Origin: a virus | Strand: one strand, 5' to 3' | DNA: 34,669 nt | Virus genome (UHGV): UHGV-0090561 | Shown: in pieces, positions 3,231 through 33,733 of the stretch | Layout: each line of letters begins with the position of its first letter | Numbering within the stretch: the first letter of the stretch is position 1 | Notes under the pieces: model-generated | Seen by the model: the letters and a program-made list of their open reading frames with translations, nothing else | Told to the model about the DNA's origin: nothing | Databases searched by the model: none | Program-made: the position numbers and the translations under genes

Positions 3231-3657
3231 ACCGGACTCCTCCTGCGATCCCTTCTGATACTGTCATCAGCATTACGTCATCCTCCGTCATGTCCGCCAC
3301 ATCCGGGGAAGCGGGGATAACTTCATTCCCGTCCGGGCCAAAGCGGACACCTCCGGCAAGCCCTGCCGCTTTCTGCATCAGCACATCATCTTCAGGCTCT
3401 TCGTCAGCCTCGCGCCGGTTCAGCAGACTGAAATCCAGCGGATGCATATCCGGATCGCTGAAAAACAGGCTGAGTACGGTGTACGTCAGCCCGGAAAAGT
3501 GCATATCCAGCAGAACATCATGAAAATAATGGGTACTGTAAAAGCGGTGCCAGTCGGCATACTCCGTGGATGACATCCCGGCAAGCATGGCACGCCAGTC
3601 GGGTCGCCCCATCTCGCGCGCCAGTTTCAGGGCAAAACTCAGCTCACCGTCGAACAC
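3223..3657 (-). CDS. T: T frame of the G-T tail assembly chaperone (expressed by -1 frameshift from G)
   Basis: ORF overlapping the 3' end of G in the -1 frame and directly upstream of H, as in lambda; slippery heptamer present. Confidence 0.85.
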   Translation of the reverse strand: MFDGELSFALKLAREMGRPDWRAMLAGMSSTEYADWHRFYSTHYFHDVLLDMHFSGLTYTVLSLFFSDPDMHPLDFSLLNRREADEEPEDDVLMQKAAGLAGGVRFGPDGNEVIPASPDVADMTEDDVMLMTVSEGIAGGVRYG

Positions 3658-6611: not shown

Positions 6612-7402
6612 TTACGCCAGTTGTACGGACACGAACTCATCAGGGTCAGCCAGCAGCATCAGCGGTGCTGACTGAATCATGGTGAACTCACGCGCAGGAT
6701 CGCCGGTGGTCACCCAGTTTTTCGGGTAACGGGCAGAGGCGTTAATGCCTTCGCGCTGTGCGTCCGCATCCTGAATGCAGCCATAGGTGCGCAGACCGCG
6801 TGCCTGAGTGTTCCCCAGCACCATCGTGTTGTCCGGCAGGAAGTTCTTTTTGACGCCGTTTTCCACGTACTGCCCGGAATACACGACGATGGCCACATCG
6901 CCATACATCCCCTTATAGGACACCGCTTTACCCAGGTCTTTCACCGCTGTCTCCAGCTCGGAATGAGAGCCGCGACGGGTATCCAGCTTCTCCTTGACGG
7001 CTTTGAAGGAACGGAACAGCGCCCAGCCTTTCGGATCAAACACGATGATATTCACTACACCGCTGGCGTTCAGCGCGTAGGCTTCGATATCGTCGGTCGG
7101 GTCATACGTGGACTTGTCACGCTTGCTCCACTCCGTGCCACCGGACTGTGTGATGTTGTTCGCCGCACTGCGGCCCATATCCACCTCAACCGGATCGAAG
7201 GCTTCACCGGTCATGGTGTATTTGCCCTTAAGCACGGCAGAAACTGCCTGCATCTCTTCGACCTGGGCAATGGCCAGCTCTTCGTCACGCATGTTCTGCA
7301 TGATGATGCGACGGCGACGGTAAGCCGGGTCCGCCAGATTCTGTGGATCTTCATCCGGCAGGCGACGCAGGGTCATCTGCGGATTCACCTCATGCTTGGG
7401 CT
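6612..7402 (-). pseudogene. E: Major capsid protein E, 3' fragment (codons from PKHEVNPQ to end), separated from its 5' part by the insertion
   Basis: Translation ...PKHEVNPQMTLRRLPDEDPQNLADPAYRRRR...VSVQLA matches the C-terminal ~260 aa of lambda gpE; no start codon, and a TAG lies immediately upstream at the junction. Confidence 0.93.
7393..7402. repeat. Left copy of 10-bp direct repeat TGCTTGGGCT (putative att core / target duplication)
   Basis: Identical 10-mer at 18591-18600; both copies lie inside E coding sequence (AAG CCC AAG CA on the coding strand). Confidence 0.8.
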
Positions 7403-8440
7403 ACATGAGTCAATGACGTAAGTATGTGAATGATATAAGAGGAAAAATAGAGCATAATCTCTACCAGAATGACTATGTTGCAATACATGCTGCAATACAC
7501 AGAAATGAATTTACATGCTGTTCGATTATTAAGTTTCATAGCCGAGTTGCAGATCAGCAACTCACCCACCAGCCCAGATAATTTCATTTTCACACTGGAG
7601 GACTCCTTGAAATCAAGGAATCATAATCCTGCCATGTCATCATTCCGGCCTTCTCAGATTTGAGGTGTGCGGAAAAAATAAACGCTATTAAGCAGCTATG
7701 TGGGTACTGCACTTTTTGGGTAGTGCAACTATCCAGCTTCCTCAAATTAAGGATTGTGGAAAAATCAATGAGTCAGGTTTATTCCCCCGTTCTCCCCCAA
7801 TGGGGGTTTTCGAAAGAATCAATGGGTTAGGCCATCGTGCAAATTTGCACTCTGCCAGCCAACGCAATTTTGCGTTATCAGTCCTCAGATGTGAGGGATG
7901 TAGCCAGCTTTTCCCCCAGTGGGGATTATCCAGTTACCGACGGTTTAACCGCCTGTGCCAGCACAACGAAAGAATTTGCGGGTAGCTTTAAACTACTCAC
8001 AACATCCCATCTTACAGGCCGTGCCTTTCTAACTTTTTACAATGCAATAAGTCAGGTAACGCTATGCGTTCCACCGTGTACACCGCGCCAGTAAAACCCC
8101 CGGATTCGTGGTTTTCCTGAATATCAGGAATCTACCGCCGTAACCGCTCCTGCTTCTTCCACTGGTAAGTGTTTTTCGCGCTCTCCCTTCGCTACATGGA
8201 ACGGCGACGATATGGCAACAACTCCAGAACTCTGGTGCGTATGTTGCACATATCCACGCCGTTAAGCTCGATACCGTCACGGCGCATAACCTCAAGCACC
8301 ACACGCGCGTAATTTTCAGCGGTCGTGCTGTCCGACTGCGTTGTCTCCTGTTTGCCTGCTGCCTGATAGATATCACTGGAAACGTGCCGGATAAGTTCCA
8401 GCAGCAGAAAGGCGAGTTGCTACCGCGCAATTGTTGAACA

Positions 8441-8647
8441 AAAAACGAGAAAGGAAACGACACTGTCCAAAAAACACGTTTTCAGCACCTGCTGTTTCCT
8501 TTCTTTTTAGGGGGTATTTATAATAAAAACATTAAGTTACGGCAAAGAAGAACGGAAACGCCTTAAACCGGAAAATTTTCATAAATAGCGAAAACCCGCG
8601 CGCCTTCCGCCCCGTAACGCTCCGGATCACCGGAAAGGACCCGCTCA
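8441..8647. other. cos site of the satellite (cosN/cosB-like), near-identical to the prophage cos
   Basis: About 200 bp aligns almost base-for-base with 24798-25000, including the inverted GAAAGGAAACGAC / CGTTTCCTTTC terminase R-site-like repeats and the segment GCGAAAACCCGCGCGCCTTCCGCCCCGTAACG. Confidence 0.75.
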
Positions 8648-8730
8648 AAAAAAGCGGCCACTGACGTGATTGTTTATGTTCCATGAGCGACAAAACCGCC
8701 CGGAGGCGGTTTCACATAAAACATTTTGCA

Positions 8731-9378
8731 TCAGCGACCAATCACCACAACCTGACCACCATCACCTTCATCTGCCGTGCTGATCTCCTGAGATACCACT
8801 CGCGACCCCACACGCATTTCACCGTACAGAACGGGCAGAACATTGCCCTGGGCAACCATGTTATCCAGTGACGAGAAATACGTGTTCTGCTTACCGTTAT
8901 CCGTTGTCTGTGTGCGGGGAGTTCTGGCTTTCGGTGCCAGCATCTGCGCCACACCACCGAGCACCATACTGGCACCCGCACTATACATTCCTGTAATTGC
9001 TGCCGCTCCTAGCCAACCAGCGGGGTTCCACCACGCCACCGCAATCAGCGCCGCCCCCAGCACGGTCTGAAACACACCGCCACTTTTAGCGCCAGCAAGA
9101 CGCGGTACGATGTGGATCACAGCACCATTCGCCAGCGGCTCATTAAGACGGGCTGATAATTCATTTTCGCCTGCATCCCGCCCGGCAATCCGTACCTGAT
9201 ACCAACCGTCGCTCAGTTTCTGACGAAACGACGGTAGCTGTGTGGACAGAGCTCGGATGGCTTCAGCCCCCGTTTTTACACGAAGGTCGATGCGGTGGCC
9301 GAATCGTTGCAAATCCCCGTAAAGGCAGATTCGTGCCATGCCCGATGACGCCAGAGGGAGTGTGTGCGTCGTTGCCAT
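8731..9378 (-). CDS. Tail assembly protein I-like protein (lambda gpI family)
   Basis: 215-aa ORF MATTHTLPLASSGMARICLYGDLQRFG...QGNVLPVLYGEMRVGSRVVSQEISTADEGDGGQVVVIGR resembles lambda gpI as I recall it (N and C termini conserved, middle divergent); Shine-Dalgarno upstream. Confidence 0.65.
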   Translation of the reverse strand: MATTHTLPLASSGMARICLYGDLQRFGHRIDLRVKTGAEAIRALSTQLPSFRQKLSDGWYQVRIAGRDAGENELSARLNEPLANGAVIHIVPRLAGAKSGGVFQTVLGAALIAVAWWNPAGWLGAAAITGMYSAGASMVLGGVAQMLAPKARTPRTQTTDNGKQNTYFSSLDNMVAQGNVLPVLYGEMRVGSRVVSQEISTADEGDGGQVVVIGR

Positions 9379-9418
9379 TTGTCGGTATACCTCTCTCGTT
9401 TGCTCTGTTGTTCAGAAA

Positions 9419-9802
9419 TTAGCAGATCAACTTATAGCGTCCATTCCGAGCATTGCGGCGTACACGTTCAATCTTGAGGCATAGCGCCGCATCTGGCTTT
9501 TTTGGGACTGGTACACGGCAATATTCAGAAGCGCGAGGAATATTATTTATCCAGTCAATCACTTCGCTTAAATACCAGGCCTTACGCCCTTCCGTAACCT
9601 GCACACGCTCCGGGAACTCTCCACGGGCCTCAAGGTTTAGCAGTGTACGACGACTCAGGGTTGTAAGTTCCATTACCTGATTCATATCAACAAGACGCTC
9701 GCTTAAACGCATTTTGTCAGCGATAGCTTTTAATTCCTCTACAGCTGGATTTGGGTACATAATTTCGGCAATTGGCTTAAGGTCATTGTAATGATTCTGC
9801 AT
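9419..9802 (-). CDS. AlpA-like helix-turn-helix protein with N-terminal extension
   Basis: 127-aa ORF with GGGGGA Shine-Dalgarno; C-terminal half TTLSRRTLLNLEARGEFPERVQVTEGRKAWYLSEVIDWI resembles the AlpA/excisionase-type HTH. Confidence 0.6.
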   Translation of the reverse strand: MQNHYNDLKPIAEIMYPNPAVEELKAIADKMRLSERLVDMNQVMELTTLSRRTLLNLEARGEFPERVQVTEGRKAWYLSEVIDWINNIPRASEYCRVPVPKKPDAALCLKIERVRRNARNGRYKLIC

Positions 9803-9813
9803 TGTATCCCCCT

Positions 9814-10155
9814 TTACACACGAGCCAGCGGCTGAACAGAAATACCTGAGCCAACAAACGCTGCAACCTTTACTGACAGTTCTTTTACAGACTCAGGCCA
9901 GTTCAGAGCATCAACATTTAAGACACCTGTCTTATAGACCTGAGCCTGTGTTTTTTTCGCGGTGTCGATTTGTACAGCGGATACATAAACCGCTTTACCT
10001 ACGCTCGTACCATCCCATACCACCAGTGCACCTGTTGCATCTTCCTGCATCAGTGGCGTAAATGCAGGAATTACCCCTTTATTAGCTGAAAATATCCCCA
10101 GCGTAGTAACCAGTGCTTCAGTGCCAGCCATGAGTTCAGTGTAATGAGTAGCCAT
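9814..10155 (-). CDS. Head decoration protein, lambda gpD family (divergent)
   Basis: 113 aa; aligns by eye with lambda gpD (FTPLMQEDATGALVVWDGTSVG vs [22 protein letters not shown]; AFVGSGISV vs [10 protein letters not shown]); strong Shine-Dalgarno AAGGGGGAG. Confidence 0.7.
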   Translation of the reverse strand: MATHYTELMAGTEALVTTLGIFSANKGVIPAFTPLMQEDATGALVVWDGTSVGKAVYVSAVQIDTAKKTQAQVYKTGVLNVDALNWPESVKELSVKVAAFVGSGISVQPLARV

Positions 10156-10164
10156 TGCTCCCCC

Positions 10165-11205
10165 TTAGCCAATGCGAACGGTAACAAAACGATTGATGCG
10201 AGCCGGTATTGGCTGTGGTGCTGAATGTGTCTGCACATATTCAATAGCCGGATCACCAGGCACAATATAGTTTTTCGGTGCAAGTTCGGCTTTAGTCAGC
10301 CCCATTCGGATTAGCTCCGGGTCCTGAATACCGCCATAGGCGACAATCCCCTGAAGAGCCGTATTGCCAAGCACCATCAAATCAGGATCAAGGAAATGTT
10401 TTTCAGTTCCGTCCTCGTCGGTATAACGCCCGCTGTAAACAACAATCGCAACATCGCCCATATACCCTTTAAAACTCACCGAATCACCAAGGTCTTTAAG
10501 GGCCGTTTCCAGTTCGGAATTAGAACCACGACGGGTATCCAGAGCCTCTTTTATCGCTCTGAATGAACGGTATTTCTTCCATACATTACCGCCCATAATG
10601 ATGATATTAGTGACGCCCTCACTAAATTCTGCGTAGTTCTCAATATCATCATTTGGATCAAAAGTTTCTTTATCCTTACCTGACCACTCAGCACCGCCAG
10701 ACTGAGTGATGATATTTTGTGGTTTAATATTCCAGTCCAGCTCATAACGTTCAATACCATCGCCCTCAATGATATTTTTCCCCGTTGTGATTGCCTGAAC
10801 GGCAAGCCATTCAATACGTGCACGAATAGCTTTAGCTTGATTTACAATCGCCTGTTTAACTTTAATATTACGCGCCCCAAAAGCATTGTATTGCTCAGGT
10901 GATACACCAGCAGGGCGCACAGCTAACTTATTTGGATCAATGCTGCTTTTCGGCTTCATATAGCCTGGACGAATTGTTTTTGATTCGTACCCTTCGTCAC
11001 GTGAAACTTTACTACCCACCATAGGAGAACAAAACGCTGCAATTGGGATATTTGGATCGTCGATTGTATCAAGAATAATATCGCGCGATTCAAACATTAC
11101 CGAGCGAGTAAAAAACAAACGGGTAAACAACGCATTTAGTTGTTTTTGTACATCTACAGCATTAACCACCTGTACAAGCTGGGTAGGCGAATATAAATCA
11201 ACCAT
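10165..11205 (-). CDS. Major capsid protein, lambda gpE family (divergent satellite copy)
   Basis: About 346 aa from the ATG with AAGAGG Shine-Dalgarno; central block NIITQSGGAEWSGKDKETFDPNDDIENYA...AIKEALDTRRGSNSELETALKDLG...GDVAIVVYSG is clearly homologous to lambda gpE but far more diverged than the prophage copy. Confidence 0.85.
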   Translation of the reverse strand: MVDLYSPTQLVQVVNAVDVQKQLNALFTRLFFTRSVMFESRDIILDTIDDPNIPIAAFCSPMVGSKVSRDEGYESKTIRPGYMKPKSSIDPNKLAVRPAGVSPEQYNAFGARNIKVKQAIVNQAKAIRARIEWLAVQAITTGKNIIEGDGIERYELDWNIKPQNIITQSGGAEWSGKDKETFDPNDDIENYAEFSEGVTNIIIMGGNVWKKYRSFRAIKEALDTRRGSNSELETALKDLGDSVSFKGYMGDVAIVVYSGRYTDEDGTEKHFLDPDLMVLGNTALQGIVAYGGIQDPELIRMGLTKAELAPKNYIVPGDPAIEYVQTHSAPQPIPARINRFVTVRIG

Positions 11206-11422
11206 ACGCATCCTCTTTGCATTCATTAAAAATAATTGTGGATATATGCTATCACCGATATTTGTCATGCGAATACATGCAACCGAGTGCAATGTTGTAT
11301 AAAGTTTTGGGATGACAACTTCAGCGCGGATAATTAGTGTTAATATCTTCACTCCCTTTGGTCGGGATTTATGTAGCATGCCGGAAAATTTATTTTTTTC
11401 CGGCCTTTTTTATTGGCAATAT

Positions 11423-11872
11423 TTAAAACGGAATATCATCTCCCCATTGCTCATTATCTCCCACTGGTGGATGGCTTCCTTGCTGATCTGCCTGTTGTTT
11501 TGCTCTGTTCAGTGCGTCAGTAGCCTGCCCCTGTTGGCCTTTTTTGCCGCCCGGTCGCACCGTTCGCGCACTGATTACGCTGTCTGCGATAACCTGCCAG
11601 CCCTGCCGCGTTTCACCGTTCTGTCCAGTCCACTGACTCACCTGCATGTTACCCGCCACGCTCAGGAGTTCGCCTTTGTGATGCTTTGCCAGCGCGTCGG
11701 CTTGTCTGCCAAACGCCAGAACAGATAACCACATCGTCGCCTGACCGTCATCCGACTGGCTGCAGGGCAGTGATACCGCCATACGCGCCAGCGTCATGGG
11801 GGTGCCCTTGCTGGTCTGTTTTGTCTGCGGGGCGTCCACCAGCCGCCCGTAAGCTGCTATTTGCGCCGTCAT
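11423..11872 (-). CDS. ssb: Single-stranded DNA-binding protein
   Basis: 149-aa ORF with OB-fold-like N-terminus, Gly/Gln-rich linker and the characteristic acidic tail ending DDIPF. Confidence 0.85.
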   Translation of the reverse strand: MTAQIAAYGRLVDAPQTKQTSKGTPMTLARMAVSLPCSQSDDGQATMWLSVLAFGRQADALAKHHKGELLSVAGNMQVSQWTGQNGETRQGWQVIADSVISARTVRPGGKKGQQGQATDALNRAKQQADQQGSHPPVGDNEQWGDDIPF

Positions 11873-12126
11873 GCTGCCTGCTCTCCGGACTTAATATTGA
11901 TGGTTGTCACTTCCTCCGCTTCGGCAATCTCCCGTTCGGTCAGCGTGGCAAAGTTTGCAGCCGCCGTTGTCATGAATGCGCTTATCAGTTCGGGATGTGC
12001 TTTCGCGTATCCTTCCCCGGCGTTGCGGTCTATTGCCTTAATCGCCACCCTTAGCCAGTGTTCAGCCATATCAAGGGCGCGGTAATGTGGCTTTATATGT
12101 TTGTTCAGTTTTCCTGATGTGTGCAT
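11869..12126 (-). CDS. Hypothetical protein (satellite, between ori and ssb)
   Basis: 85-aa ORF whose stop overlaps the ssb start (operon-like); no recognisable family. Confidence 0.45.
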   Translation of the reverse strand: MHTSGKLNKHIKPHYRALDMAEHWLRVAIKAIDRNAGEGYAKAHPELISAFMTTAAANFATLTEREIAEAEEVTTINIKSGEQAA

Positions 12127-12169
12127 TTTTATTTTTACCCCCTCGTTTAAAAAGTTTTTTGTGCACCAC

Positions 12170-12404
12170 CACCTTGTCTACCTTGTCTACCTGATTAGTT
12201 ATCAGGCCAGTAATGGCGCGGGTTTCAGGGAGGTAGACAGCCCCAAATAGCTGTCTACCTCATCTCTACCCGTATCCTTACCTGTCTACAAAAATGGGTA
12301 GATAAGGTAGATAACAGGTAGACAGTGAAAAATAGTTATCTACCTGCATTAATACATTGAAATAAAAGTATTTTCTTTCAGTCAGGTAGACAAGGTAGAT
12401 AACC
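12170..12404. repeat. Iteron array (putative satellite replication origin)
   Basis: About 10 copies of GGTAGA(C/T)A / its reverse complement TGTCTACC in both orientations, immediately downstream of the primase-helicase gene. Confidence 0.8.
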
Positions 12405-12415
12405 ATTGCCATTTT

Positions 12416-14167
12416 TTATAAAAACGCATCGCAATCATCAGTAGTCGTTGCGTTGGTCTGCGTGACTCCCTTAACTTTTCGCGTAATATATTCATATCCG
12501 TAAACTTTCGCCGCTGACCTCATAGCCTTTCCGAACTCATTCACGCTCAAACATTTCCCCTTTCCTGTGTATGCCATGAAGGCCATATAGACACGGTAAA
12601 GGCTGTTTCTGGTCGTGTACTTCACGGAGTCACCACCACCGCCCATCATTAGCCCACGAGCTTCCTCCAGAAACTCAAGCGCCGCGCAAAGCTCAACAAC
12701 TGGATCCGTTTGCTGCTTTATTGCCAGAGCTTCATCACCGTCACGCTGTTCCAGTAGTAAAGCCCTTGCCTTTTCAGGGTCAGCAAAGTTAGCCAGCAAG
12801 CGGCGGATAATTACGGGGATTTCTGCCGCTATCTTTTCCGGTAATTCCTTGTCTTTTTCGTCCTCCCTTACAATGTTGTCGAACCGGAAAATCACCCGAC
12901 GGCGTGACACACCTCCGGCCCGTTCGGTAAAGATCATCGGGTCGTTATTGGTTGCCAGTACCACCGCCCTTATTATCGTCGTGAATCGCTTCTCATATTT
13001 CGGATTGATTTCAACGGGATCGCCTCCCGTGATTTTCTTGATGCCCGTGCCTTCCCCCGTATATTTCGGCTGATCGGCAAGGACGATAAGACGACTCCCG
13101 ACAACCTGCGCGCGCCCTCCTGCATCATCGAGTGATGTCATCTCTGCGCTTACGGTGTTCTGTTTGCCTGCAAGCAGGGTGGCAATATGGGTAAATGTAC
13201 TCTTACCGCTTCCCCCGTCTCCGGTGGCCTCAATGAACATCTGCCAGTCGTAGCGGTTCGCCATAATCATGTATAACGCGGCACATATACGCATCATCTT
13301 GCGCGGGTCTTTTCCTGCAGCATGTTCAAGCCATTTATGGAAATTTGGCGCATTATCGCGGATGTTTTCCCCTGCTACTGGTGGCGTGTACTCAATACCA
13401 TTGTGCGTGGTGCTCCAGTGCTCCGGCGAGTGCGGAGAAAATTCCCCCGTTTTCAGATTAAGCACACCATTAGTGAACGGTAGCAAATCACCGGACGGCT
13501 CCCCCATGGGGGCTGCAATAACTTTTAACGCTTCCACGGCGTTATTGATTACACGTTTGCTGAACGTGGCCCTGTGCTCTGAATAGATCGCCACCATTTC
13601 GCGGCTCAGCTCCATTGTGCTGACCGGACACCATACCCCGCCGCGCCATACGTGGACGATTTCACTTTCTGCATGAACACACACACCATCAAAGCGATCG
13701 GCAAGTAGTTGTGCACGTTCACTGTCTGCCATCTGTGAAAGTTGCGCCTTTTGCTTCGTCGGAAGATTAAGCACCAGACTTTCCCCACGCTCGCATTCCT
13801 CTTTGAGTCGCGGCAACTGGTCGGATAAATCCACTGGGCTGGTGTCAGTAATCCCCGCGTATTCGTGTACGGTCTTCACTCCAGCCACAGCCAGTAACGT
13901 AACAATCTGCGTCATGCTGTGCTCTGTGATATGTCCTGCGCGGTAAACACGCACACACTGACGATCTTCATCAATGATCCGGTAATCGGTGATATTTTTC
14001 AGTTGCTCATCAGCCAGCACGACAGGCGGCACATCGTCGGCGGCAATATGTTTACCCGCCCATTCCTGCCACTCTTTCGCATGGCTCCACGCATCACTAC
14101 CTGCAAAGATGATTACCTCTGTCAGTCTGTCGCGTGGCTGTTTTTTTAAGTTCGGTGCCAGTTTCAT
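12416..14167 (-). CDS. Primase-helicase (P4-family primase C-terminal / SF3 helicase-like replication initiator)
   Basis: 583-aa ORF with Walker A GDGGSGKST and downstream NTPase-like motifs typical of P4 alpha-type / PICI Pri-Rep proteins; followed by iterons. Confidence 0.8.
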   Translation of the reverse strand: MKLAPNLKKQPRDRLTEVIIFAGSDAWSHAKEWQEWAGKHIAADDVPPVVLADEQLKNITDYRIIDEDRQCVRVYRAGHITEHSMTQIVTLLAVAGVKTVHEYAGITDTSPVDLSDQLPRLKEECERGESLVLNLPTKQKAQLSQMADSERAQLLADRFDGVCVHAESEIVHVWRGGVWCPVSTMELSREMVAIYSEHRATFSKRVINNAVEALKVIAAPMGEPSGDLLPFTNGVLNLKTGEFSPHSPEHWSTTHNGIEYTPPVAGENIRDNAPNFHKWLEHAAGKDPRKMMRICAALYMIMANRYDWQMFIEATGDGGSGKSTFTHIATLLAGKQNTVSAEMTSLDDAGGRAQVVGSRLIVLADQPKYTGEGTGIKKITGGDPVEINPKYEKRFTTIIRAVVLATNNDPMIFTERAGGVSRRRVIFRFDNIVREDEKDKELPEKIAAEIPVIIRRLLANFADPEKARALLLEQRDGDEALAIKQQTDPVVELCAALEFLEEARGLMMGGGGDSVKYTTRNSLYRVYMAFMAYTGKGKCLSVNEFGKAMRSAAKVYGYEYITRKVKGVTQTNATTTDDCDAFL

Positions 14168-14463
14168 TTTTTGCCCCTGAATGCGTTAATCATGCTTTTC
14201 ATTTTCTGGATGTTTCCCCGCGCTTTTTCCCTGCTGGTGGGCTTACTGCGGGGTGCGGCATATACCAGGGAAAAATCACGCCGGAACTGATAAACAGGCA
14301 TCACACAGTCATAGCTATACCCCTCACGGCGGTAAGTGATGCGCCGTTCTGCCACGCCTTTAATCGTTACCGTGCCGCCGTATTTATCGCGGTAAATATC
14401 GCCGTTCATAAATTCAGGCCGAGCGGGGCCGCTGGCAATAAAGCCAGAATTTTTCATTTCCAT
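14164..14463 (-). CDS. Hypothetical protein (upstream of primase, ATGA overlap)
   Basis: 99-aa ORF translationally coupled to the primase start; no recognised family. Confidence 0.5.
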   Translation of the reverse strand: MEMKNSGFIASGPARPEFMNGDIYRDKYGGTVTIKGVAERRITYRREGYSYDCVMPVYQFRRDFSLVYAAPRSKPTSREKARGNIQKMKSMINAFRGKK

Positions 14464-14480
14464 ATTATTTATTCTTCGAC

Positions 14481-14702
14481 TTAACTCGACTTATTTGATA
14501 GCAGGGCACTATTTATTGCGTCATTGAGTTTTTCTGCTGCTTCATCAATAAGTGACAACAGGCCATAAGCAATATTTGCATCTTCATTGTCATTTATGCA
14601 ATCAAGCCACATATTTAATATTGCTTTTGCTGAATTATTTAAAGTTAATGAACTCTCTGCACATGCTAACAATTTAAAAAAGACTTCCCGTTCTGTATTC
14701 AT
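14481..14702 (-). CDS. Hypothetical small protein
   Basis: 73-aa ORF in a tightly packed co-directional array; AT-rich. Confidence 0.4.
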   Translation of the reverse strand: MNTEREVFFKLLACAESSLTLNNSAKAILNMWLDCINDNEDANIAYGLLSLIDEAAEKLNDAINSALLSNKSS

Positions 14703-14894
14703 TTAATCCCCCACCAGCTTACTTTCTTCCTCAATCAGGAAACTAGCGACACTTCCCGAAAGGCGCGCCAGTAGGCTCGCCAGCGCGGATATATCAGCAT
14801 CTGTAATTTTGTTCGGGTATACCTCAAGAAGGCGGCAAATAATTTCTGTTTGGTGCGCACGTTCAGCGGCTTCGTGTAATGTGATTTCCTGCAT
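14703..14894 (-). CDS. Hypothetical small protein
   Basis: 63-aa ORF abutting its neighbours without gaps. Confidence 0.4.
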   Translation of the reverse strand: MQEITLHEAAERAHQTEIICRLLEVYPNKITDADISALASLLARLSGSVASFLIEEESKLVGD

Positions 14895-15079
14895 TAATGC
14901 ACCTCTTTTAATTCATACACTGCTGAAATAATGACTTGTGATAAGCCATATTCTGATGATTCGCTTCTCACCGCAGCAATAGCCGTCTGAACATTAACAG
15001 CCTTCACGTTCTGAGTGATACCAATTGTGTGGCCTCGTGGGTTAACAGCTCGGGCAAATACACGGAAGGTTTTAAGCAC
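14894..15079 (-). CDS. Hypothetical small protein
   Basis: 61-aa ORF overlapping its neighbours by a few nt. Confidence 0.4.
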   Translation of the reverse strand: MLKTFRVFARAVNPRGHTIGITQNVKAVNVQTAIAAVRSESSEYGLSQVIISAVYELKEVH

Positions 15080-15275
15080 GGCACACCTCCTGACGAATAC
15101 GGGCAGCGAATACCATCACGCAGCCAGTTGGGGATTGCTGGCGGGCTTCCTGTTCGCTGATGGCCTCGATGGTAATCATGCGCGGTTGTGCCGTACTCAA
15201 GGCGATAAAACGCCAGATGTATTTATTCAGGTTGTGCGAGTTCCGCCCTTGCGGGTGTGTGGTATGATTTCTCAT
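15072..15275 (-). CDS. Hypothetical small protein (first gene of the leftward satellite operon)
   Basis: About 67 aa from the internal ATG preceded by a GAGG Shine-Dalgarno; the upstream part of the track ORF is not supported. Confidence 0.4.
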   Translation of the reverse strand: MRNHTTHPQGRNSHNLNKYIWRFIALSTAQPRMITIEAISEQEARQQSPTGCVMVFAARIRQEVCRA

Positions 15276-15474
15276 AGCTACCTCGATACTGTTGCTATCG
15301 TTGGTGGTTAGAAGCCCGTTGGTGTTCCTAGCACCTTCGGGCTTTGCTTTTTTAAGTGCCCCCGTGTTAAGGTGGTCACCTAACAATGAAAAGGCTAATT
15401 CAATAGGTGGTCACTTGTCAACGATCAAACGCGATAAAAGTCCTAAGGGTGATGGGCAATCTCCACAATTCAGA

Positions 15475-15606
15475 ATGCGAATTTCTCCAGAGCTAAAAGA
15501 GCAATTCGACAAAGAAGCGCAGAGCGACGGCATAAGCCTAGCCAACTGGCTTAAAGAATTAGGGCGCAAAGAGCTGCTACGGCGCGGTATTGAACCAAAA
15601 GGATAA
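15475..15606 (+). CDS. Ribbon-helix-helix (Arc/CopG-like) DNA-binding protein, putative
   Basis: 43-aa product MRISPELKEQFDKEAQSDGISLANWLKELGRKELLRRGIEPKG fits the RHH pattern; weak Shine-Dalgarno, so the start is uncertain. Confidence 0.45.
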   Translation: MRISPELKEQFDKEAQSDGISLANWLKELGRKELLRRGIEPKG

Positions 15607-15633
15607 GAATAATTGAAGTCAAGGAGCTAACAC

Positions 15634-15990
15634 ATGAAATACGAATTCTTCGCAACAAGTAGCAGTAGTTTGGATGTATACATAGTCACTGTATCAAACG
15701 ATTCTGGCTCGCTAATCATGACTTGTAATTGTCCAGCAGGAAGTAAAGGTATTCTATGTAGACACCGTAAAGCTTTAATTACCGGAAAAATCCGCGGTAT
15801 ATTCACTCCCCCAAGAAGGAATAATCCTGAAAAATTACAAGAAGCTATAAATTTAATAGCCACATATGGCATAGATAAAACATTAAAGTTGTACACTGAT
15901 GAGTTAGAACGAGCAGAACAGACTTGGATAAGTGTTCGCGATAATTTGAGAGCAATGATAAACGCTCTTGTTGAACCACCTAAATATTGA
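15634..15990 (+). CDS. SWIM zinc-finger protein, small
   Basis: 118-aa ORF with AAGGAG Shine-Dalgarno; motif CNCPAGSKGILCRH matches the SWIM CxCxnCxH signature; followed by an intrinsic terminator. Confidence 0.7.
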   Translation: MKYEFFATSSSSLDVYIVTVSNDSGSLIMTCNCPAGSKGILCRHRKALITGKIRGIFTPPRRNNPEKLQEAINLIATYGIDKTLKLYTDELERAEQTWISVRDNLRAMINALVEPPKY

Positions 15991-16056
15991 ACTGTTCACA
16001 TTGCCTATCAGGCGATAACCTCGTATTCTGATTAAGGCTAACTATATACTCACATT

Positions 16057-16080
16057 GGCGACCAATTCTGGTCGCCTTTA
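16057..16080 (+). terminator. Rho-independent terminator after the SWIM gene
   Basis: GGCGACCA-attc-TGGTCGCC hairpin followed by TTTA; position hand-counted. Confidence 0.6.
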
Positions 16081-16121
16081 TCCACCATTTTTATAATATC
16101 ATAGATTAAAAGTGTTAATCC

Positions 16122-16952
16122 TTACCCCCTGAATGGAATTGATGAGGATTTAATTTCCACAGAACTAAATCCTCTTGAATCCAAGAACATTTTTATACCA
16201 GCCTCAATAAAATCATAATCGTTTGTCGGGCCAATTGTAATGCTTTTAATTGGTAACTTTCTATTATCTTTATTATCAATGATGATATAAGGGATGATCC
16301 CATTATTATTTATTCTGAAGTGCACATCTGGCATTTGCATCCACGGAGTAAATACCAATCTAAATTCATTCTCTTCGATAAAACTAGGATGTTTAAAAAA
16401 TGGGATGTATTTAGATATAAATTGATACGTAGAGACCATTGTTACAAAATGATCATTCATTTCTTTAATATTAATACCATTACAAGAAAAAAACTCCCCC
16501 AACTCCTTACTCATCTTAGTAATATCGTTATTATTTGAATATATAACATCATGTGCAACACAATTTAAATAAATATTTTGAGAAAAGCTCACAAGTTCAT
16601 CCGCATCAAACTCAATGCAAACACCCTGTTTATTTCCGTAACCTCTCCACTGACTTAACTTATCGTTTTCCTTACAAAAAGAGATGCTATAAACATGTTT
16701 ATCAATCCCTTTTTCTTTTTGTAACCTCCCTTTCTCATACATGTCAAGAGACTTGAGCAAAATAGTTTTCTTATCTTTTGGAATGATATTATCATCAACT
16801 ATTTTAATTGTATTTCGAAAGCATTCACATCCATGGTTAGACTCCTCTTTATCATTTAAGAAATATATGTTTGTAGCCCATAAAGAATTAGAGTCTAATA
16901 TACCTTTCAAACCAAAAAGATCTGTATAATGAAATATAGCCACAATGCCCAC
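16122..16952 (-). CDS. DUF2971-like protein (satellite cargo, function unknown)
   Basis: 276-aa ORF, markedly AT-rich versus its neighbours; N-terminal FHYTD...YFLNDKEE resembles the DUF2971 motif as I recall it (not verified by HMM); GTG start 7 nt after the alpA stop. Confidence 0.55.
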   Translation of the reverse strand: MGIVAIFHYTDLFGLKGILDSNSLWATNIYFLNDKEESNHGCECFRNTIKIVDDNIIPKDKKTILLKSLDMYEKGRLQKEKGIDKHVYSISFCKENDKLSQWRGYGNKQGVCIEFDADELVSFSQNIYLNCVAHDVIYSNNNDITKMSKELGEFFSCNGINIKEMNDHFVTMVSTYQFISKYIPFFKHPSFIEENEFRLVFTPWMQMPDVHFRINNNGIIPYIIIDNKDNRKLPIKSITIGPTNDYDFIEAGIKMFLDSRGFSSVEIKSSSIPFRG

Positions 16953-16959
16953 CTAATAG

Positions 16960-17190
16960 TTAAGTTGTTTCCCACTCACCTCGAATCCATGCCTGCACTT
17001 CTGAAAGACGATATGCAACAGCAGTGGAACCAATCTTGATCCGCTTAGGAAATTTTCCTTCCTTCTCCAGCTTCCAGCGTGTGCTGTTCGCAAGAGTGGT
17101 TAGCTCCCGACATTCTTTCTCACGGATCATTCGGTCAATGTTAGGAATGTACTCCAGACCCTTTTTATCAACAATTGCCATTTTTTTCAT
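16960..17190 (-). CDS. alpA: AlpA-family transcriptional regulator / excisionase-like protein
   Basis: 76-aa ORF immediately downstream of int; ...RELTTLANSTRWKLEKEGKFPKRIKIGSTAVAYRLSEVQAWI is the AlpA HTH pattern. Confidence 0.8.
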   Translation of the reverse strand: MKKMAIVDKKGLEYIPNIDRMIREKECRELTTLANSTRWKLEKEGKFPKRIKIGSTAVAYRLSEVQAWIRGEWETT

Positions 17191-17191
17191 G

Positions 17192-18427
17192 CTAACCAGC
17201 CTTTTGTTTGAGGATTGTCACTTTTGAATCAGCAGCTGCGATGCTATTGAGATATGTAGTCCAGAGTTCCAGAGCATCCAGTTTTTTAGCCATAAACTTA
17301 CTCCGGTTGTAAACACCTGCCACGCCAGGTAGCGCATGGCCTAACAGTTGTTCTACTACATAAAATTCAACACCGAGATCACTTAGATGAGTAGATAGCG
17401 TTCTTCTAAGGTCGTGTAGTGACCATTGTTTTTCATGGCCCAAACGTTTACCGATTTTCCCCCCAATCTTGCTTACGCTTTCTCTAATTCGCAGACTTCC
17501 CAGCACATAACCAGTATGTTTTGTCTCTTCGTGAACATCCGTTACCCACTGTCGTAGAATTTCAGGTACTGGTCTGACGATTTCAACACCAGTTTTTGAG
17601 TGATCTTTTGGCACAGTCCAAACCCAACTTTCGAGATCCCATTCGCTCCATTCTGATAATCGGGCTTCACTCATTCGACATCCAAATACTGTACAAAGCA
17701 CAAACATTTTTCGCGTGTATTCAGACATTAGTTTTAAATCAGGCTCGACAAAAATTGCCTTCCAGAGCTGGCCCAGTTCGGCTTCATCCAGAACCCGATC
17801 CCGCTTACCTGCAATCTGCCCCACATCACTCATGCGCAAATCCTTTAAAGCATCACACGTCGCGTACTGGCGTACCCGACAAAAACGAAGAGCTAATTTA
17901 GTGTCAGAAAAAACATACGCCGCCATAACTGGTGCATTACGTTTAATTCGGTCAAAACAGTCCAGCCATTCATATAGGTGAGTGTCATTTACGGGCAAAT
18001 GACCGATATAGGGAAAGATATGCTTTCGAAATCTGCCAAGCGTTACAGCATGAGTTTTACGACGCACCTTACAGTAATTTTCATACCAGTAATTTAGTGC
18101 ATCCTCCACTGTGACCGGCTTTAAGCGTTCTTCAGCCTGAATCTTAATCTGGATACGCGGATCACGTTTGTCAGCCAACCAAGCACGGCACTCGTCGCGC
18201 TTTTCCCTTGCCTGTTTGAGTGACATATCAGGATATTTACCCAACGTTAGCCAGACCGGAGCAGCCCGGCCACCTGCTAACCTGTAGAAGAAAACAAAGC
18301 TCACAGCCCCCTTGGTACTCACACGAATAGAAAGCCCCTTTCCATCAGCAATGGTGATCTGCTTTTCTCTGGGTTTCCCCAGATATCCTTTAAGTGCTTT
18401 GTCGCTCAGTTTGTTCTCGCCAGCCAT
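17192..18427 (-). CDS. int: Tyrosine recombinase (phage integrase family)
   Basis: About 411 aa from the internal ATG (MAGENKLSDK...); C-terminal catalytic region with HDLRRT...LLGH...Y-type motifs; adjacent to the right junction and direct repeat. Confidence 0.88.
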   Translation of the reverse strand: MAGENKLSDKALKGYLGKPREKQITIADGKGLSIRVSTKGAVSFVFFYRLAGGRAAPVWLTLGKYPDMSLKQAREKRDECRAWLADKRDPRIQIKIQAEERLKPVTVEDALNYWYENYCKVRRKTHAVTLGRFRKHIFPYIGHLPVNDTHLYEWLDCFDRIKRNAPVMAAYVFSDTKLALRFCRVRQYATCDALKDLRMSDVGQIAGKRDRVLDEAELGQLWKAIFVEPDLKLMSEYTRKMFVLCTVFGCRMSEARLSEWSEWDLESWVWTVPKDHSKTGVEIVRPVPEILRQWVTDVHEETKHTGYVLGSLRIRESVSKIGGKIGKRLGHEKQWSLHDLRRTLSTHLSDLGVEFYVVEQLLGHALPGVAGVYNRSKFMAKKLDALELWTTYLNSIAAADSKVTILKQKAG

Positions 18428-18589
18428 TTTTAGCCCCAAAAAGCAATACAAGCTGCAATACAGAGATGATTGCAACACACAGATAACGAGGAAAATCCAG
18501 TGAAAGCGCCAGATAAACTTATTCTTTATTATCAAAAGATTAAGTGTAAAAACCAGCAACTACACGAAAGCCTCAGAAAGCCATGCTAA

Positions 18590-18835
18590 GTGCTTGGGCT
18601 TGACATATCCCGGTGTAAATTCAGAGGTGGAGCCGCCACGGGAGCGGATAACCTCACCGGAAACAATCGGCGAAACGTACAGCGCCATGTTTACCAGTCC
18701 CGGAATTTGTGAGAGATAGACTTTCTCCGTGGTGAAGGGATAGCTCTCACGGAAAAAGAGACGCAGAAACAGCGGATCAAACTTAAATTTCTTCTCATTT
18801 GCCGCCAGCAGCTGGGCGGTTGTGTACATCGACAT
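18590..18835 (-). pseudogene. E: Major capsid protein E, 5' fragment (first ~81 codons), reading into the insertion
   Basis: MSMYTTAQLLAANEKKFKFDPLFLRLFFRESYPFTTEKVYLSQIPGLVNMALYVSPIVSGEVIRSRGGSTSEFTPGYVKPKH matches the lambda gpE N-terminus, then diverges (LAWLSEAFV, stop) at the junction. Confidence 0.93.
18591..18600. repeat. Right copy of 10-bp direct repeat TGCTTGGGCT
   Basis: Identical to 7393-7402; lies at the codons KPKH of E. Confidence 0.8.
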
Positions 18836-24779: not shown

Positions 24780-24797
24780 TGTTCATTCCACGGACAA

Positions 24798-25000
24798 AAA
24801 CAGAGAAAGGAAACGACAGAGGCCAAAAAGCCCGTTTTCAGCACCTGTCGTTTCCTTTCTTTTCAGAGGGTGTTTTAAATAAAAACATTAAGTTACGGCG
24901 AAGAAGAACGGAAACGCCTTAAACCGGAAAATTTTCATAAATAGCGAAAACCCGCGCGCCTTCCGCCCCGTAACGTTCTGGATCGCCGGAAAGGACCCGA
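24798..25000. other. Prophage cos region (cosB R-site-like repeats and cosN-like segment)
   Basis: Reverse complement resembles the lambda left-end region (AAACGACAGGTG.../CGTTTCCTTTCT... R sites, IHF-like AT-rich stretch), but the cosN-equivalent differs from lambda GGGCGGCGACCT; duplicated at 8441-8647. Confidence 0.75.
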
Positions 25001-25148
25001 AAATGATAATACATATCAATTACACTTAAAGGGGGGGGGGTTAATTTGTTCACATCAACACTCCGGACCCCAATGGCCTTCTACTCTGGTTTTGCCATAA
25101 AATAGTCCTGATACATATTCATATCAGTTAGTCATATACGGAAAAAAT

Positions 25149-28307: not shown

Positions 28308-29111
28308 ATGACAGAAAAAGATAACATTGGTAAGTTAATTTGGCATATTGCTTGCGATGAATCTGGCATTGATGGGCAACGTTTCTACGGCTTTGGCAGT
28401 CTGTGGATGAAGTACCAACGCCGTGGGGATTTCTGTCAACTAATCAGAGAACTACGCAGCAAACATGGTTTTTTTGAAGAAATAAAATGGCAAAAAGCCC
28501 ATTCAAAAAGATACTCTGAATTTTATCTTGAGCTGATCGACTTATTCTTTAGAGTTCCTTGGCTAGCTTTTCATTGTATCGTGGTTGAAAAATCAATAGT
28601 AAACAAGGCATTTCATAATGGGGATTATGACCTGGCAAGGAGAAAGCACTTCACAAATCTCATTACCACAAAAATTAGCTCTGTAATTTCTGCACACCCT
28701 GAAAGAGACAGTTACTTCAGGATTGAAGTTGATCCTATCGCATCTCGTTATAAAAAGGCCGATGAAGAACTAAATGTTATTGCCAATAACATATTGAATA
28801 GAAAATTTGGTCGTAAAGGGATAATCAGCAGTGTAGTGACAAAAGACTCTAAAGCATCTGAAAACATTCAGCTAGCCGATTTTTTCTTAGGTGCGGTTAT
28901 GTGCGCATATCAAGGAAAAGCTTCATCTGAAGCCAAAATAAGAGTATCAAACTATGTTGCTTCATATTTAGGCTGGGATCATTTGCAATATGATACATGG
29001 CACACTGAGAGAAAATTTAATATCTGGTATTTTTATGATAAAACTCGAGGGCCACGAGATATAGAAACTCAAAATGTTAGCTTAAAGTATCCACTTCCCC
29101 AAAAGAAATAG
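28308..29111 (+). CDS. DUF3800-like protein (accessory gene between Q and S, antisense to late transcription)
   Basis: 267-aa ORF in a markedly AT-rich island; N-terminal HIACDESG and C-terminal IQLADFFLGAV resemble the DUF3800 motifs as I recall them (not HMM-verified). Confidence 0.55.
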   Translation: MTEKDNIGKLIWHIACDESGIDGQRFYGFGSLWMKYQRRGDFCQLIRELRSKHGFFEEIKWQKAHSKRYSEFYLELIDLFFRVPWLAFHCIVVEKSIVNKAFHNGDYDLARRKHFTNLITTKISSVISAHPERDSYFRIEVDPIASRYKKADEELNVIANNILNRKFGRKGIISSVVTKDSKASENIQLADFFLGAVMCAYQGKASSEAKIRVSNYVASYLGWDHLQYDTWHTERKFNIWYFYDKTRGPRDIETQNVSLKYPLPQKK

Positions 29112-32099: not shown

Positions 32100-32717
32100 T
32101 TAAAAAAGCGATAAGCTTTGCCCCGAATTCATCGGTAGTGGAGAGAAAGTAACATCACGTATTTGCTCCCCGAGCAGAAGAAACCTATCCAAGGGTAGCG
32201 GCGGTATCGTAGCAAACCCTGAAAGCCCCTTCTTTCTTGCAACATCTCTCGCATCCATAAGGATACGACCTAACACGTTCATACCATAAAAGTTACCTTC
32301 GGAGTCTTTACTAGCCCCCCAAAATTGGTCCTTCTCTGAGTGCTCAACAATGTCATGCTCTCCTGTGCTATCCAGGAGCGCGAAAAACGATTCCCAGTTC
32401 TGGCAAAGCTTAACGCAGACACACCATTTCATTACCGAAACTCGATTTTTTTCCCAACCTGCACGGGTTTTGGCTTCGAAAGATCTGGCAGTTTGTTTAG
32501 CTTCATAAGGGTTGCCTTGGGTAATAATAGCCTTTTGGATATCTGGATAGTCTGGATATCGGCATGCTTGGTAAAGAATTTCACTCGATTGAATGGGTAT
32601 ACCATTAACTAAGAGCGGATATCCTTTGGCCATGTTGGAAAGCCCCCCCCATTTCTCGGTGGTTTTCCTGAAAGAAACTGTGTTGTGAAACAGGTATAGT
32701 CTATAGCTCATGATCAC
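32100..32717 (-). CDS. NADAR-domain (YbiA-like, DUF1768) protein, putative
   Basis: 205-aa ORF; N-terminal FRKTTEKWGGLSNMAKGYP...SSEILYQACRY fits the NADAR N-terminal pattern as I recall it; ATGA overlap with the upstream gene. Confidence 0.55.
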   Translation of the reverse strand: MIMSYRLYLFHNTVSFRKTTEKWGGLSNMAKGYPLLVNGIPIQSSEILYQACRYPDYPDIQKAIITQGNPYEAKQTARSFEAKTRAGWEKNRVSVMKWCVCVKLCQNWESFFALLDSTGEHDIVEHSEKDQFWGASKDSEGNFYGMNVLGRILMDARDVARKKGLSGFATIPPLPLDRFLLLGEQIRDVTFSPLPMNSGQSLSLF

Positions 32718-33733
32718 CGATTATACACATTACGCTTCATAAGTGGATACCAACAATCCAGAGCTCTATTTCCCGTTCGAAGATAAGTTCCCCACCAGTA
32801 CGCTAGAGGGGTATTATTGGGGCAGTTTCTGAAAGTAAAGATAGTTCCACCAAACCCAACACCATTGAAAGTTGAAAAGCCTAAAGGTTTTATAACATCA
32901 GAAGGATTTTGACTCTGACTAAGGATATCAAACCCAACTTTTGTCATAATTGCTTCAAAACGATCTCGTCTCTGCTCATTAGGGAAAAATTTATTCGCGA
33001 CGTAACCGTCACGATATGTTCCTAAATAATGTACTTGACCGTCAGCCCATTCAGGTATTGATACACTTTGCGCTTTTGGCCAAAAAACCTCAGAACTCGA
33101 ACTGTTTCGGCGTTGATTTTCAACAACTGCAAACTCACCAACACCAACGCAAACTGAAATATTCCTATCAGCAAATTTTCGTTCAAGTTGGTTTTTTATC
33201 TTCCATGCTGAATACGTGTGCCCGCCTAAAAAGTACACCAATATTGTAATATTTTGGAGTTCAAAGTGCTCAATAAACCAAGTTAAATCATTGATTGCCT
33301 TAGCTCCTGAGAATGAAACATCGTCAAAGTAAATAAATTCACGGAATGAACTAACTCTTTGACGTTGTGACAGTCTGGTCACAACGTTGAATTCTTCCAC
33401 ACAATCTTCTCGAAGCAAATCCAAAAACTCAGATTGACTGGTGCCTTGGTTCTGGATATCGAGAAACGCTGCGGTTTGAAAGAACCTTTCATTTTGCTCA
33501 TCATTGGCGATACTACTAATAACTCTGCGATAGTCGCTCTCAGAGAAGTATCCAATCCCCATTAATCGGTCCGTTTCCTCTAAGACAAATCGCCTATCGG
33601 TTAACTCAAATTGATTAATCCATCGATTAACATGATCAATGCTCATGCCACCTTGAGGAGGGTTTCGATAGTCATTTAGTTTAGTAGCAATTTGCCCCAT
33701 AAGATCACGATCTGTAACATTGCTATAACACAT
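32714..33733 (-). CDS. Phosphoribosyltransferase-like protein (type I PRTase PRPP-binding motif), function unknown
   Basis: 339-aa ORF, AT-rich; motif FIYFDDVSFSGAKAI resembles the PRPP-binding loop (hydrophobic x4, DD, then small residues and G); flanking domains unrecognised. Confidence 0.5.
   Translation of the reverse strand: MCYSNVTDRDLMGQIATKLNDYRNPPQGGMSIDHVNRWINQFELTDRRFVLEETDRLMGIGYFSESDYRRVISSIANDEQNERFFQTAAFLDIQNQGTSQSEFLDLLREDCVEEFNVVTRLSQRQRVSSFREFIYFDDVSFSGAKAINDLTWFIEHFELQNITILVYFLGGHTYSAWKIKNQLERKFADRNISVCVGVGEFAVVENQRRNSSSSEVFWPKAQSVSIPEWADGQVHYLGTYRDGYVANKFFPNEQRRDRFEAIMTKVGFDILSQSQNPSDVIKPLGFSTFNGVGFGGTIFTFRNCPNNTPLAYWWGTYLRTGNRALDCWYPLMKRNVYNR

Follow-up and report, generated by a model that had tools for sequence, protein, structure and literature searches.

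The 34,669-nt viral genome sequence UHGV-0090561, hereafter the window, contains a lambdoid prophage whose major capsid gene E is interrupted by an island of about 11 kb, and both the prophage and the island carry a lambda-type cos site. All cos, prophage and island features are read on the minus strand, "followed by" meaning towards lower coordinates (Table 1). In this orientation the prophage, here termed the helper, shows the order P, nin region, Q, holin, lysozyme, Rz, cos, Nu1, A, W, B, C, D, E, FI, FII, Z, U, V, G, T, H, and its proteins for head and packaging share 93-100% identity with their lambda counterparts (B 99.1%, E 98.8%). The island interrupts E at residue ~82 and its genes, bar one, lie on the late-operon strand; rejoining the flanks without the island gives GYVKPKHEVNPQ, exactly as in lambda E. 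The integrase gene, alpA, a variable zone, pri with its putative origin and a late zone follow each other in the gene order of Gram-negative phage-inducible chromosomal islands (PICIs), as assigned from Pfam and PDB matches. By gene content and insertion site, the island is an HE-PICI (helper-embedded PICI) of the "11capE" type, lying in gene E of a near-lambda prophage.

Pairwise alignment (MAFFT, blastn) of positions 8438-8643 with 24794-24999 gave a gapless match of 206 nt with 18 mismatches (91.3% identity; E=2.7e-81 within the window), and the similarity of the two stretches is far beyond chance. The match of about 200 bp that the original prediction had placed between the island and the prophage cos region is thus borne out. 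Specifically, the 32-mer that it quoted, GCGAAAACCCGCGCGCCTTCCGCCCCGTAACG, occurs in both copies, and the inverted R-site-like repeats that it described are real: R3 and R1 match those of lambda exactly in both copies, while R2 is inverted as in lambda. Only the term "identical cos" went too far, given the 18 differences, which fall mostly in the spacers, in I1 and in the R2 flank. The surroundings also proved to be as described, since what follows the copy in the prophage is Nu1 (24779-24234; 98% identity with the lambda protein), and the island copy is followed by a remnant open reading frame (ORF; 8404-8135) without a start codon, where no minus-strand promoter-like site was found, and then by about 0.7 kb of non-coding DNA (43% G+C) reaching to attR. 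Chance or an assembly duplication as the source of the two copies was ruled out by the E-value (3e-81), the 18 differences and the recurrence in dozens of independent genomes and viral contigs.

When the ends of the lambda genome were aligned with both copies, each copy was found, by homology, to be a complete lambda-type cos composed of cosQ, cosN and a cosB with the arrangement R3-I1-R2-R1. The predicted cohesive end, GGGCGGAAGGCG, is common to the two copies, and its interior differs from that of lambda (GGGCGGCGACCT). The sole length difference from lambda cos is one missing base near +138, again common to island and helper. As no indels separate the two copies, the distance between cosN and R3, described as critical (Feiss et al. 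2022), is preserved. The 18 differences map to the cosQ-cosN gap, I1, the R2 flank, the R2-R1 spacer and the bases just past R1, leaving cosQ, cosN, R3, R1 and all the R cores untouched, as would be anticipated for an island copy maintained in working order for recognition by Nu1/A. In addition, the island-helper homology breaks off abruptly at both ends: the shared stretch corresponds to lambda -31 to about +176, starting at cosQ and ending short of the Nu1 ribosome-binding site. A homology confined to this interval indicates that a functional cos unit is shared, and not an arbitrary phage fragment. The two cos sites of the window are co-oriented, lie 16,356 bp apart and have identical cohesive ends. 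Directly past the helper cosQ, on the lysis-gene side, there is a ten-G run (aaaggggggggggttaat, 25030-25040), present at this place neither in the island copy nor in lambda, which could be slippage-prone.

By using the integrase as query, 68 viral contigs and 3 contigs from species-representative genomes were collected, giving 71 loci with integrases 88-100% identical; in 65 of the 71 the E N-terminal fragment lies directly upstream of int (at most 400 bp); the grouping rests on integrase identity and insertion site. Integrases 99-100% identical occur in dozens of viral contigs, nearly all adjoining a split E, and in the 47 loci with both E halves the island measures 10,324-11,316 bp. At least 80% of the island is present at ~98% identity in 26 complete E. 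coli genomes, in most of them beside terminase, portal and protease genes, but no identical island was found in 5,426 complete E. coli genomes, where the best coverage was 84%. In one of these 26 genomes (L001), a Qin-like prophage is annotated with a capsid gene split in the same way. Sibling islands with unrelated flanking DNA also carry their cos at this location, ahead of attR at the 3' end.

When every lambda-type cos was extracted from these loci, 27 different alleles were obtained for islands and 24 for lambda-like helpers. Among the island alleles cosQ is invariant (27/27), while divergence in the spacers reaches about 10-20%. In R3, R2 and R1 the 9-bp cores, corresponding to the Nu1-contacted bases 55-63 of R3 (Feiss et al. 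2022), comprise 34 positions, of which 5 are variable, as compared with 111 of the 167 remaining ones, when the two most divergent alleles are excluded (Fisher p=2e-8); the values are 14/34 and 125/167 when all alleles are counted (p=2e-4). The corresponding values for 18 full-length alleles, 0/34 and 63/167 (p=9e-7), are supporting evidence only, this subset having been picked partly by R-site similarity. Most island alleles also share derived states that the helpers lack, in particular the cohesive end GGGCGTCAGGCG, which points to long vertical residence in islands rather than to repeated recent capture. In conclusion, the comparison of alleles provides positive evidence that the island cos is kept under selection for recognition by the Nu1/A terminase.

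With regard to predicted cohesive ends, that of the island (GGGCGTCAGGCG) differs from that of the helper (mostly GGGCGGCGACCT) in 14 of 15 pairs, and only the pair in the window is identical. Co-variation of the island cos with the cos of its resident helper was considered and rejected, as in 14 pairs the island cos is about as far from that of its own helper as it is, on average, from those of other helpers, the window pair alone being closer. The window island cos is itself a mosaic: its left half differs from the own helper at 3/99 positions, and its right half differs at 15/102 and comes closest to the allele of a different island, which hints at an earlier exchange with a cos of helper type. 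The 3' tail of the island is likewise a three-part mosaic with a breakpoint at cosB, in which positions 9430-8495 resemble L018-type islands (96.6%), the cos allele has its closest relative at 91.3%, and positions 8365-7380 resemble islands where that DNA follows a divergent terS. This 2-kb tail was not found in one piece in any complete E. coli genome.

The Nu1 and A genes of the helper read as intact, lambda-like terminase genes, and residues 1-44 of Nu1, comprising the recognition helix and wing, are identical to those of lambda Nu1. A different strategy has been described for the PICI that serves as model in E. coli, EcCICFT073, which has cosQ and cosN like those of its helpers and no cosB, and which encodes, just after cos, the protein Rpp that retargets TerS (Fillol-Salom 2018, PMC6092414; Feiss et al. 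2022); its cos sites are required for transfer mediated by lambda and phi80, and the packaged DNA of this PICI has the size of phage DNA (PMC6092414). In the CFT073 region we found that cos1 matches lambda only from -35 to +44, without R sequences, and is followed by a 144-aa ORF matching RppC (E=5e-31), a second, inverted cos and a 93-aa ORF. With RppA of CFT073 against RppC (5e-31) as positive control, a PDB scan of all gene-strand ORFs of the island for Rpp or TerS found only relatives of integrase, AlpA, primase, SSB, capsid, decoration and gpI, and tblastn of the island with RppA, Nu1 and three sibling TerS returned chance-level matches (RppA best E=0.19). Rpp-type redirection was therefore rejected for the window island. 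The AlpA-like gene upstream of cos was also considered as a disguised Rpp or TerS, but in PDB it matches nothing other than an AlpA family protein. In conclusion, the window island would use mimicry of the whole cosB, in principle like SaPIbov5 or P4, and not Rpp retargeting, and with such mimicry the unmodified Nu1 should recognise the island cos.

The ORF downstream of the island cos was ruled out as a remnant of Nu1 or Rpp, and is instead what is left of a conserved 93-aa gene (phrog_1561). Intact homologues lie after terS in locus L045 (19732-20013) and after rppA/cos2 in EcCICFT073 (locus L075, CFT073, 3374-3655), and in chromosomal and helper-embedded PICIs alike the phrog_1561 gene comes after the packaging module, at the 3' end. 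The decayed copy kept in the island thus points to a 3'-end architecture homologous to that of EcCICFT073.

All together, we observed a complete cos anatomy, intact helper terminase genes, no Rpp or TerS in the searches described and conservation of the contact bases, and we propose that region 8438-8647 is the packaging site of the island, recognised by the unmodified helper Nu1/gpA through direct cosB mimicry, with a probability of about 0.8. That the copy serves recognition by the helper Nu1/A, as the original prediction had it, is supported by this anatomy, by the lambda-like terminase genes and by the family-wide conservation, and the parallel that it drew with the P4/P2 pair and with cos-type PICIs fits as a description of the mechanism. 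The steps of cleavage and packaging, and the number of units per head, are inferred from these data as follows. After induction the composite would replicate and the island would excise, restoring E; the island would then replicate from its own pri and origin into concatemers with a cos every 11.2 kb. The helper Nu1 would bind R3, R2 and R1 of the island and position gpA to nick cosN, whereupon the DNA would be translocated into helper-built heads and cut at a downstream cos, via cosQ, once the head is nearly full. The packaging limits of lambda are about 78-105% of its genome length, so that only four island units would fit, three being too short and five too long; a head would therefore most likely hold four units, that is 44.8 kb or 92% of the lambda length. 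The narrow size range of the family (10.3-11.3 kb) and the phage-sized DNA of EcCICFT073 fit such four-unit packaging.

Several points weigh against this proposal. In the only induction study of an HE-PICI the composite was excised and replicated and the satellite then excised, and particles of helper or satellite were unrecoverable (PMC10111431). The helper prophage lies only partly inside the window, which bears on its inducibility. I1 holds 6 of the 18 island-helper differences and the R2 flank 2 of them, which could lower affinity, and the decay of the neighbouring 93-aa gene indicates that this end of the island is eroding. In addition, siblings with the same integrase (99-100% identical) use other packaging solutions, so that a bare helper-type cos is but one of several workable designs and could be a decayed state in some lineages.

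Specifically, some siblings combine a helper-type cos with their own Nu1 homologue of ~70% identity (L012, L020, L042, L043, L071), others have a full-length divergent TerS (36-38% identity) and no long lambda-cos match (L014, L045, L047, L066 and others), and others again a cos shortened to roughly 150 nt (L023, L030, L044 and others). The siblings with a partial cos were considered as Rpp-type and rejected, as reading the ORFs downstream of their cos gave no Rpp-like ORF and, instead, gpI-like fragments and unrelated ORFs. This variety of packaging modules among same-integrase islands is not described in the HE-PICI paper (PMC10111431), and it offers, within one family, a ready set of cases for asking how satellites balance mimicry against retargeting and a self-supplied TerS.

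The island encodes diverged homologues of E (42%) and D (about 40%) and interrupts the helper E, which would accord with the packaging of monomers or dimers in small capsids made of these proteins, the helper terminase cutting at cos in the style of P4 or SaPIbov5. Redirection of capsid size by such homologues is described for SaPIbov5, and capsids of small size for PmCI172 (PMC6092414). However, all the packaged DNA of EcCICFT073, which has the same two homologues, was phage-sized (PMC6092414), and we consider small capsids a serious alternative as regards capsid size, though an unlikely one, for the window island.

The mosaic tail could also be read as the trace of an accident, in which the cos copy would be a passive by-product of late-gene capture or of recombination with the helper, unused for packaging. 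These islands have a dynamic late zone that takes up DNA from helpers, a helper-type I gene was captured right beside cos, the cos allele is mosaic, the tail has a breakpoint at cosB, the neighbouring gene is decayed, and late-gene capture is documented as frequent in HE-PICIs (PMC10111431). On the other hand, the cos copy ends at the exact functional limits, without Nu1 or the lysis-side flank, it holds the same position in islands with unrelated flanks, it keeps cosQ and the R cores while its spacers diverge, and derived island states such as GGGCGTCAGGCG imply long vertical inheritance; we regard this origin as very improbable. A function mainly as an interference decoy, titrating the helper terminase or causing abortive cutting of the composite and thereby lowering helper yield, would agree with the common interference of satellites with helper packaging (PMC6092414; Feiss et al. 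2022), with the defective products that an unexcised composite with two co-oriented matching cos could yield and with an island that has no Rpp to bias the terminase, but it is hardly to be expected, given that cosB alone would suffice for it and yet cosQ, needed only for packaging termination, is invariant in all island alleles, that no other route into particles (TerS, Rpp, portal, large terminase) is recognisable, that the small spread of island sizes is in line with a limit set by packaging and that decoy and packaging roles are not exclusive. The exact boundaries and the invariant cosQ make both a pure by-product and a pure decoy unlikely.

Besides packaging from the island cos, a joint and speculative reading, which we hold to be rather improbable, would combine a packaging cassette that is swappable within one integrase lineage of HE-PICIs and exists in four or more forms (a bare cos of helper type, cos with a Nu1-like TerS, divergent TerS and shortened cos), a diversification of cohesive ends, and the window pair as an exception with hybrid products, its island having taken up a helper-like left half of cos, probably by gene conversion, along with the exact cohesive end of the helper. 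The cohesive ends may be under diversifying pressure, which would keep the DNA ends of island and helper incompatible. If this were true, an unexcised composite packaged from the island cos to the next helper cos would yield cyclisable hybrids with the helper tail and early genes, without Nu1-D and the island; defective or transducing particles would then arise by packaging from one cos to the other, a route that has not been described for satellites.

The remaining island features are consistent with its assignment. The doubled motif specific to HE-PICIs, tgTGTATTGCantgTGTATTGCa, published as lying to either side of att some 81 and 132 bp off the attP centre (PMC10111431), is present at both ends of the island at about those distances: measured from the core centres, its nearest edges are ~80 and 127 bp away and its own centres 93.5 and 141 bp. 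The primase gene is preceded by several small ORFs and followed directly by an iteron cluster, which is a probable replication origin, its position matching that of the ori site given for Gram-negative PICIs (PMC10111431). The DUF2971 and SWIM genes of the variable zone have weak PADLOC matches (PDC-S31, PDC-S62) and may be accessory or defence cargo.

The gene I homologue just upstream of the island cos has ~81% nucleotide identity to helper-type I, carries the last bases of K attached to it and is missing from most sibling islands; from these features it looks like a late-gene capture. Fragments of gpI-like genes lie on the opposite side of cos in two relatives (L030, L060). The gpI-like gene was considered as a Tai tail-assembly-inhibition system and rejected, as the Tai paper places the Tai genes beside pri and does not mention gpI. 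A structured RNA in the non-coding tail was also rejected, no Rfam family having reached its gathering threshold anywhere in the window.

In the helper, a 39% G+C patch between Q and holin holds, on the opposite strand, a gene for a 267-aa DUF3800 protein (28308-29111, plus; PADLOC candidate family PDC-M04A, E=8e-35), which is likely a moron or defence gene. The helper nin region (32100-33733, minus) encodes a PRTase-CE domain protein (339 aa) and an adjoining 205-aa protein matching PADLOC PDC-M42C, a candidate two-gene defence system.

Table 1. Positions of cos subsites, island features and helper genes in the window
Feature	Position	Strand	Remarks
Island cos, lambda-type (cosQ-cosN-cosB)	8438..8647	-	aligned with helper and lambda cos
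Island cosQ GGGTCCT	8636..8642	-	identical to lambda cosQ (-30..-24), lambda spacing kept
Island cosN, 16 bp, CGGGGCGGAAGGCGCG	8599..8614	-	positional homology to lambda cosN; nicking predicted
Island predicted 12-nt cohesive end GGGCGGAAGGCG	8612-8601	-	flanked CG/GGGCGGAAGGCG/CG
Island cosB R3 (AGGCGTTTCCGTTCTT)	8548..8563	-	identical to lambda R3; lambda distance from cosN
Island I1 interval	8506..8547	-	R3-R2 interval, place of the IHF site, assigned by position in the alignment
Island cosB R2, inverted (AAGAAAGGAAACAGCA)	8490..8505	-	core GAAAGGAAA intact; 2 flank changes vs helper, outside core
Island cosB R1 (TGTCGTTTCCTTTCTC)	8447..8462	-	identical to lambda R1
Helper prophage cos	24794..25000	-	183/198 identical to lambda cos; then Nu1
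Helper cosQ	24992-24998	-	
Helper cosN	24955-24970	-	
Helper R3	24904-24919	-	
Helper R2	24846-24861	-	
Helper R1	24803-24818	-	
Helper predicted cohesive end GGGCGGAAGGCG	24968-24957	-	same as that of island
Helper Nu1, small terminase, 181 aa	24234..24779	-	98.3% identical to lambda Nu1
Helper gpA, large terminase, 641 aa	22334..24259	-	99.4% identical to lambda A
Helper E N-terminal fragment, residues 1-82	18590..18835	-	98.8% identical to lambda E
Helper E C-terminal fragment, residues 80-341	6612..7400	-	98.9% identical to lambda E
Island, helper-embedded PICI, 11,198-bp unit	7393..18600	-	inserted in helper gene E
10-bp direct repeat AGCCCAAGCA	18600-18591 and 7402-7393		island bounds
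Doubled motif (TGTATTGC x2)	18441..18468	-	attL side, just upstream of int
Doubled motif (TGTATTGC x2)	7478..7505	-	attR side
Tyrosine integrase, 411 aa	17192..18427	-	Arm-DNA-bind_3 and Phage_integrase (Pfam)
AlpA	16960..17190	-	Pfam PF05930, E=3e-15
DUF2971 gene, low G+C (32%)	16122-16952	-	variable zone between alpA and pri
SWIM zinc-finger gene	15634-15990	+	variable zone between alpA and pri
Primase/replication protein (D5_N, DUF5906, Pox_D5)	12416..14167	-	PDB matches: DNA primase, P4-specific primase domain
Iteron-like repeats (GGTAGAYAA / AGGTAGACAG...CTGTCTACCT)	12225..12415	-	directly downstream of pri; probable origin
SSB	11423..11872	-	Pfam PF00436
E-like major capsid homologue	10165..11205	-	42% identity with lambda E; 3bqw closest among solved structures
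D-like head decoration homologue	9814..10155	-	about 40% identical to lambda D
Second AlpA-family regulator	9419..9802	-	upstream of cos region; not Rpp-like
Lambda tail-tip assembly gene I homologue, 215 aa	8731..9378	-	just upstream of island cos
Decayed remnant of 93-aa PICI 3'-end gene (phrog_1561)	8135..8404	-	no start codon, premature stop; 63% identity

The closest known relative is the HE-PICI Eco567.11capE in prophage 50icd of E. coli NRG857c, a PICI in a lambda-E homologue with a 10-bp identity block, reported together with 201 further HE-PICI instances at the capE site (Tommasini, Mageeney & Williams 2023, PMC10111431). In that work a stretch ~90% identical between 11capE and its helper was noted at the lambda cos position, and the packaging inference was drawn from it (PMC10111431); a literature search found no later paper testing HE-PICI packaging. 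The window island resembles 11capE in its size of ~11 kb, its co-orientation in a lambda-E homologue, the 10-bp att block, the doubled TGTATTGC, the order int-alpA ... pri ... E-like, the lack of terS and the ~90% stretch at the lambda cos position of the helper. It differs in having a new mosaic 3' tail with the gene I homologue and a cos allele with no relative closer than 91%.

EcCICFT073, a cos PICI of the Rpp type from E. coli (Fillol-Salom 2018, 2019; Feiss et al. 2022), shares with the window island int, alpA, pri and the E-like and D-like genes, a cos near the 3' end with helper-like cosQ and cosN, a lambda-like helper and the 93-aa gene after the packaging module. However, EcCICFT073 is chromosomal, beside phoQ, and has two cos sites and rppA, whereas the window island lies inside its helper and has one cos with R3-I1-R2-R1 and no rpp. 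Capsid-forming PICIs (cf-PICIs) are described in the literature as encoding all the proteins for capsids and DNA packaging and taking only tails from the helper. The window island is like them a PICI with its own major capsid homologue, but its morphogenetic genes are the E-like and D-like ones only, and no terminase, portal, protease or head-tail connectors were detected in the Pfam and PDB scans.

In the P4/P2 pair the satellite bears the cos of the helper and is packaged by the helper terminase. P4-like satellites have a P2-type cos, and that of the window island is of lambda type; general Pfam, PHROGs and PDB scans of the island gave nothing beyond integrase, AlpA, primase, SSB, the E-, D- and gpI-like proteins and unknown families, sid, psu and delta not having been searched by name. 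SaPIbov5 of Staphylococcus is likewise a satellite with the cos of its helper, packaged by the helper terminase without a satellite terminase subunit (PMC6092414). Both systems differ from the window island in their unrelated helpers and terminases and in being integrated away from the helper; both redirect capsid size (Ccm in SaPIbov5, Sid in P4). The sharing of cos by satellite and helper, with packaging proposed from sequence, has thus already been published for 11capE-type elements, and the window is a textbook example, not new in kind, of a satellite that sits within the helper's capsid gene and presents the packaging signal of that helper. To the published account (PMC10111431) our analysis adds the subsite anatomy, the conservation test, the check for Rpp and TerS and the variety of packaging modules in the family.

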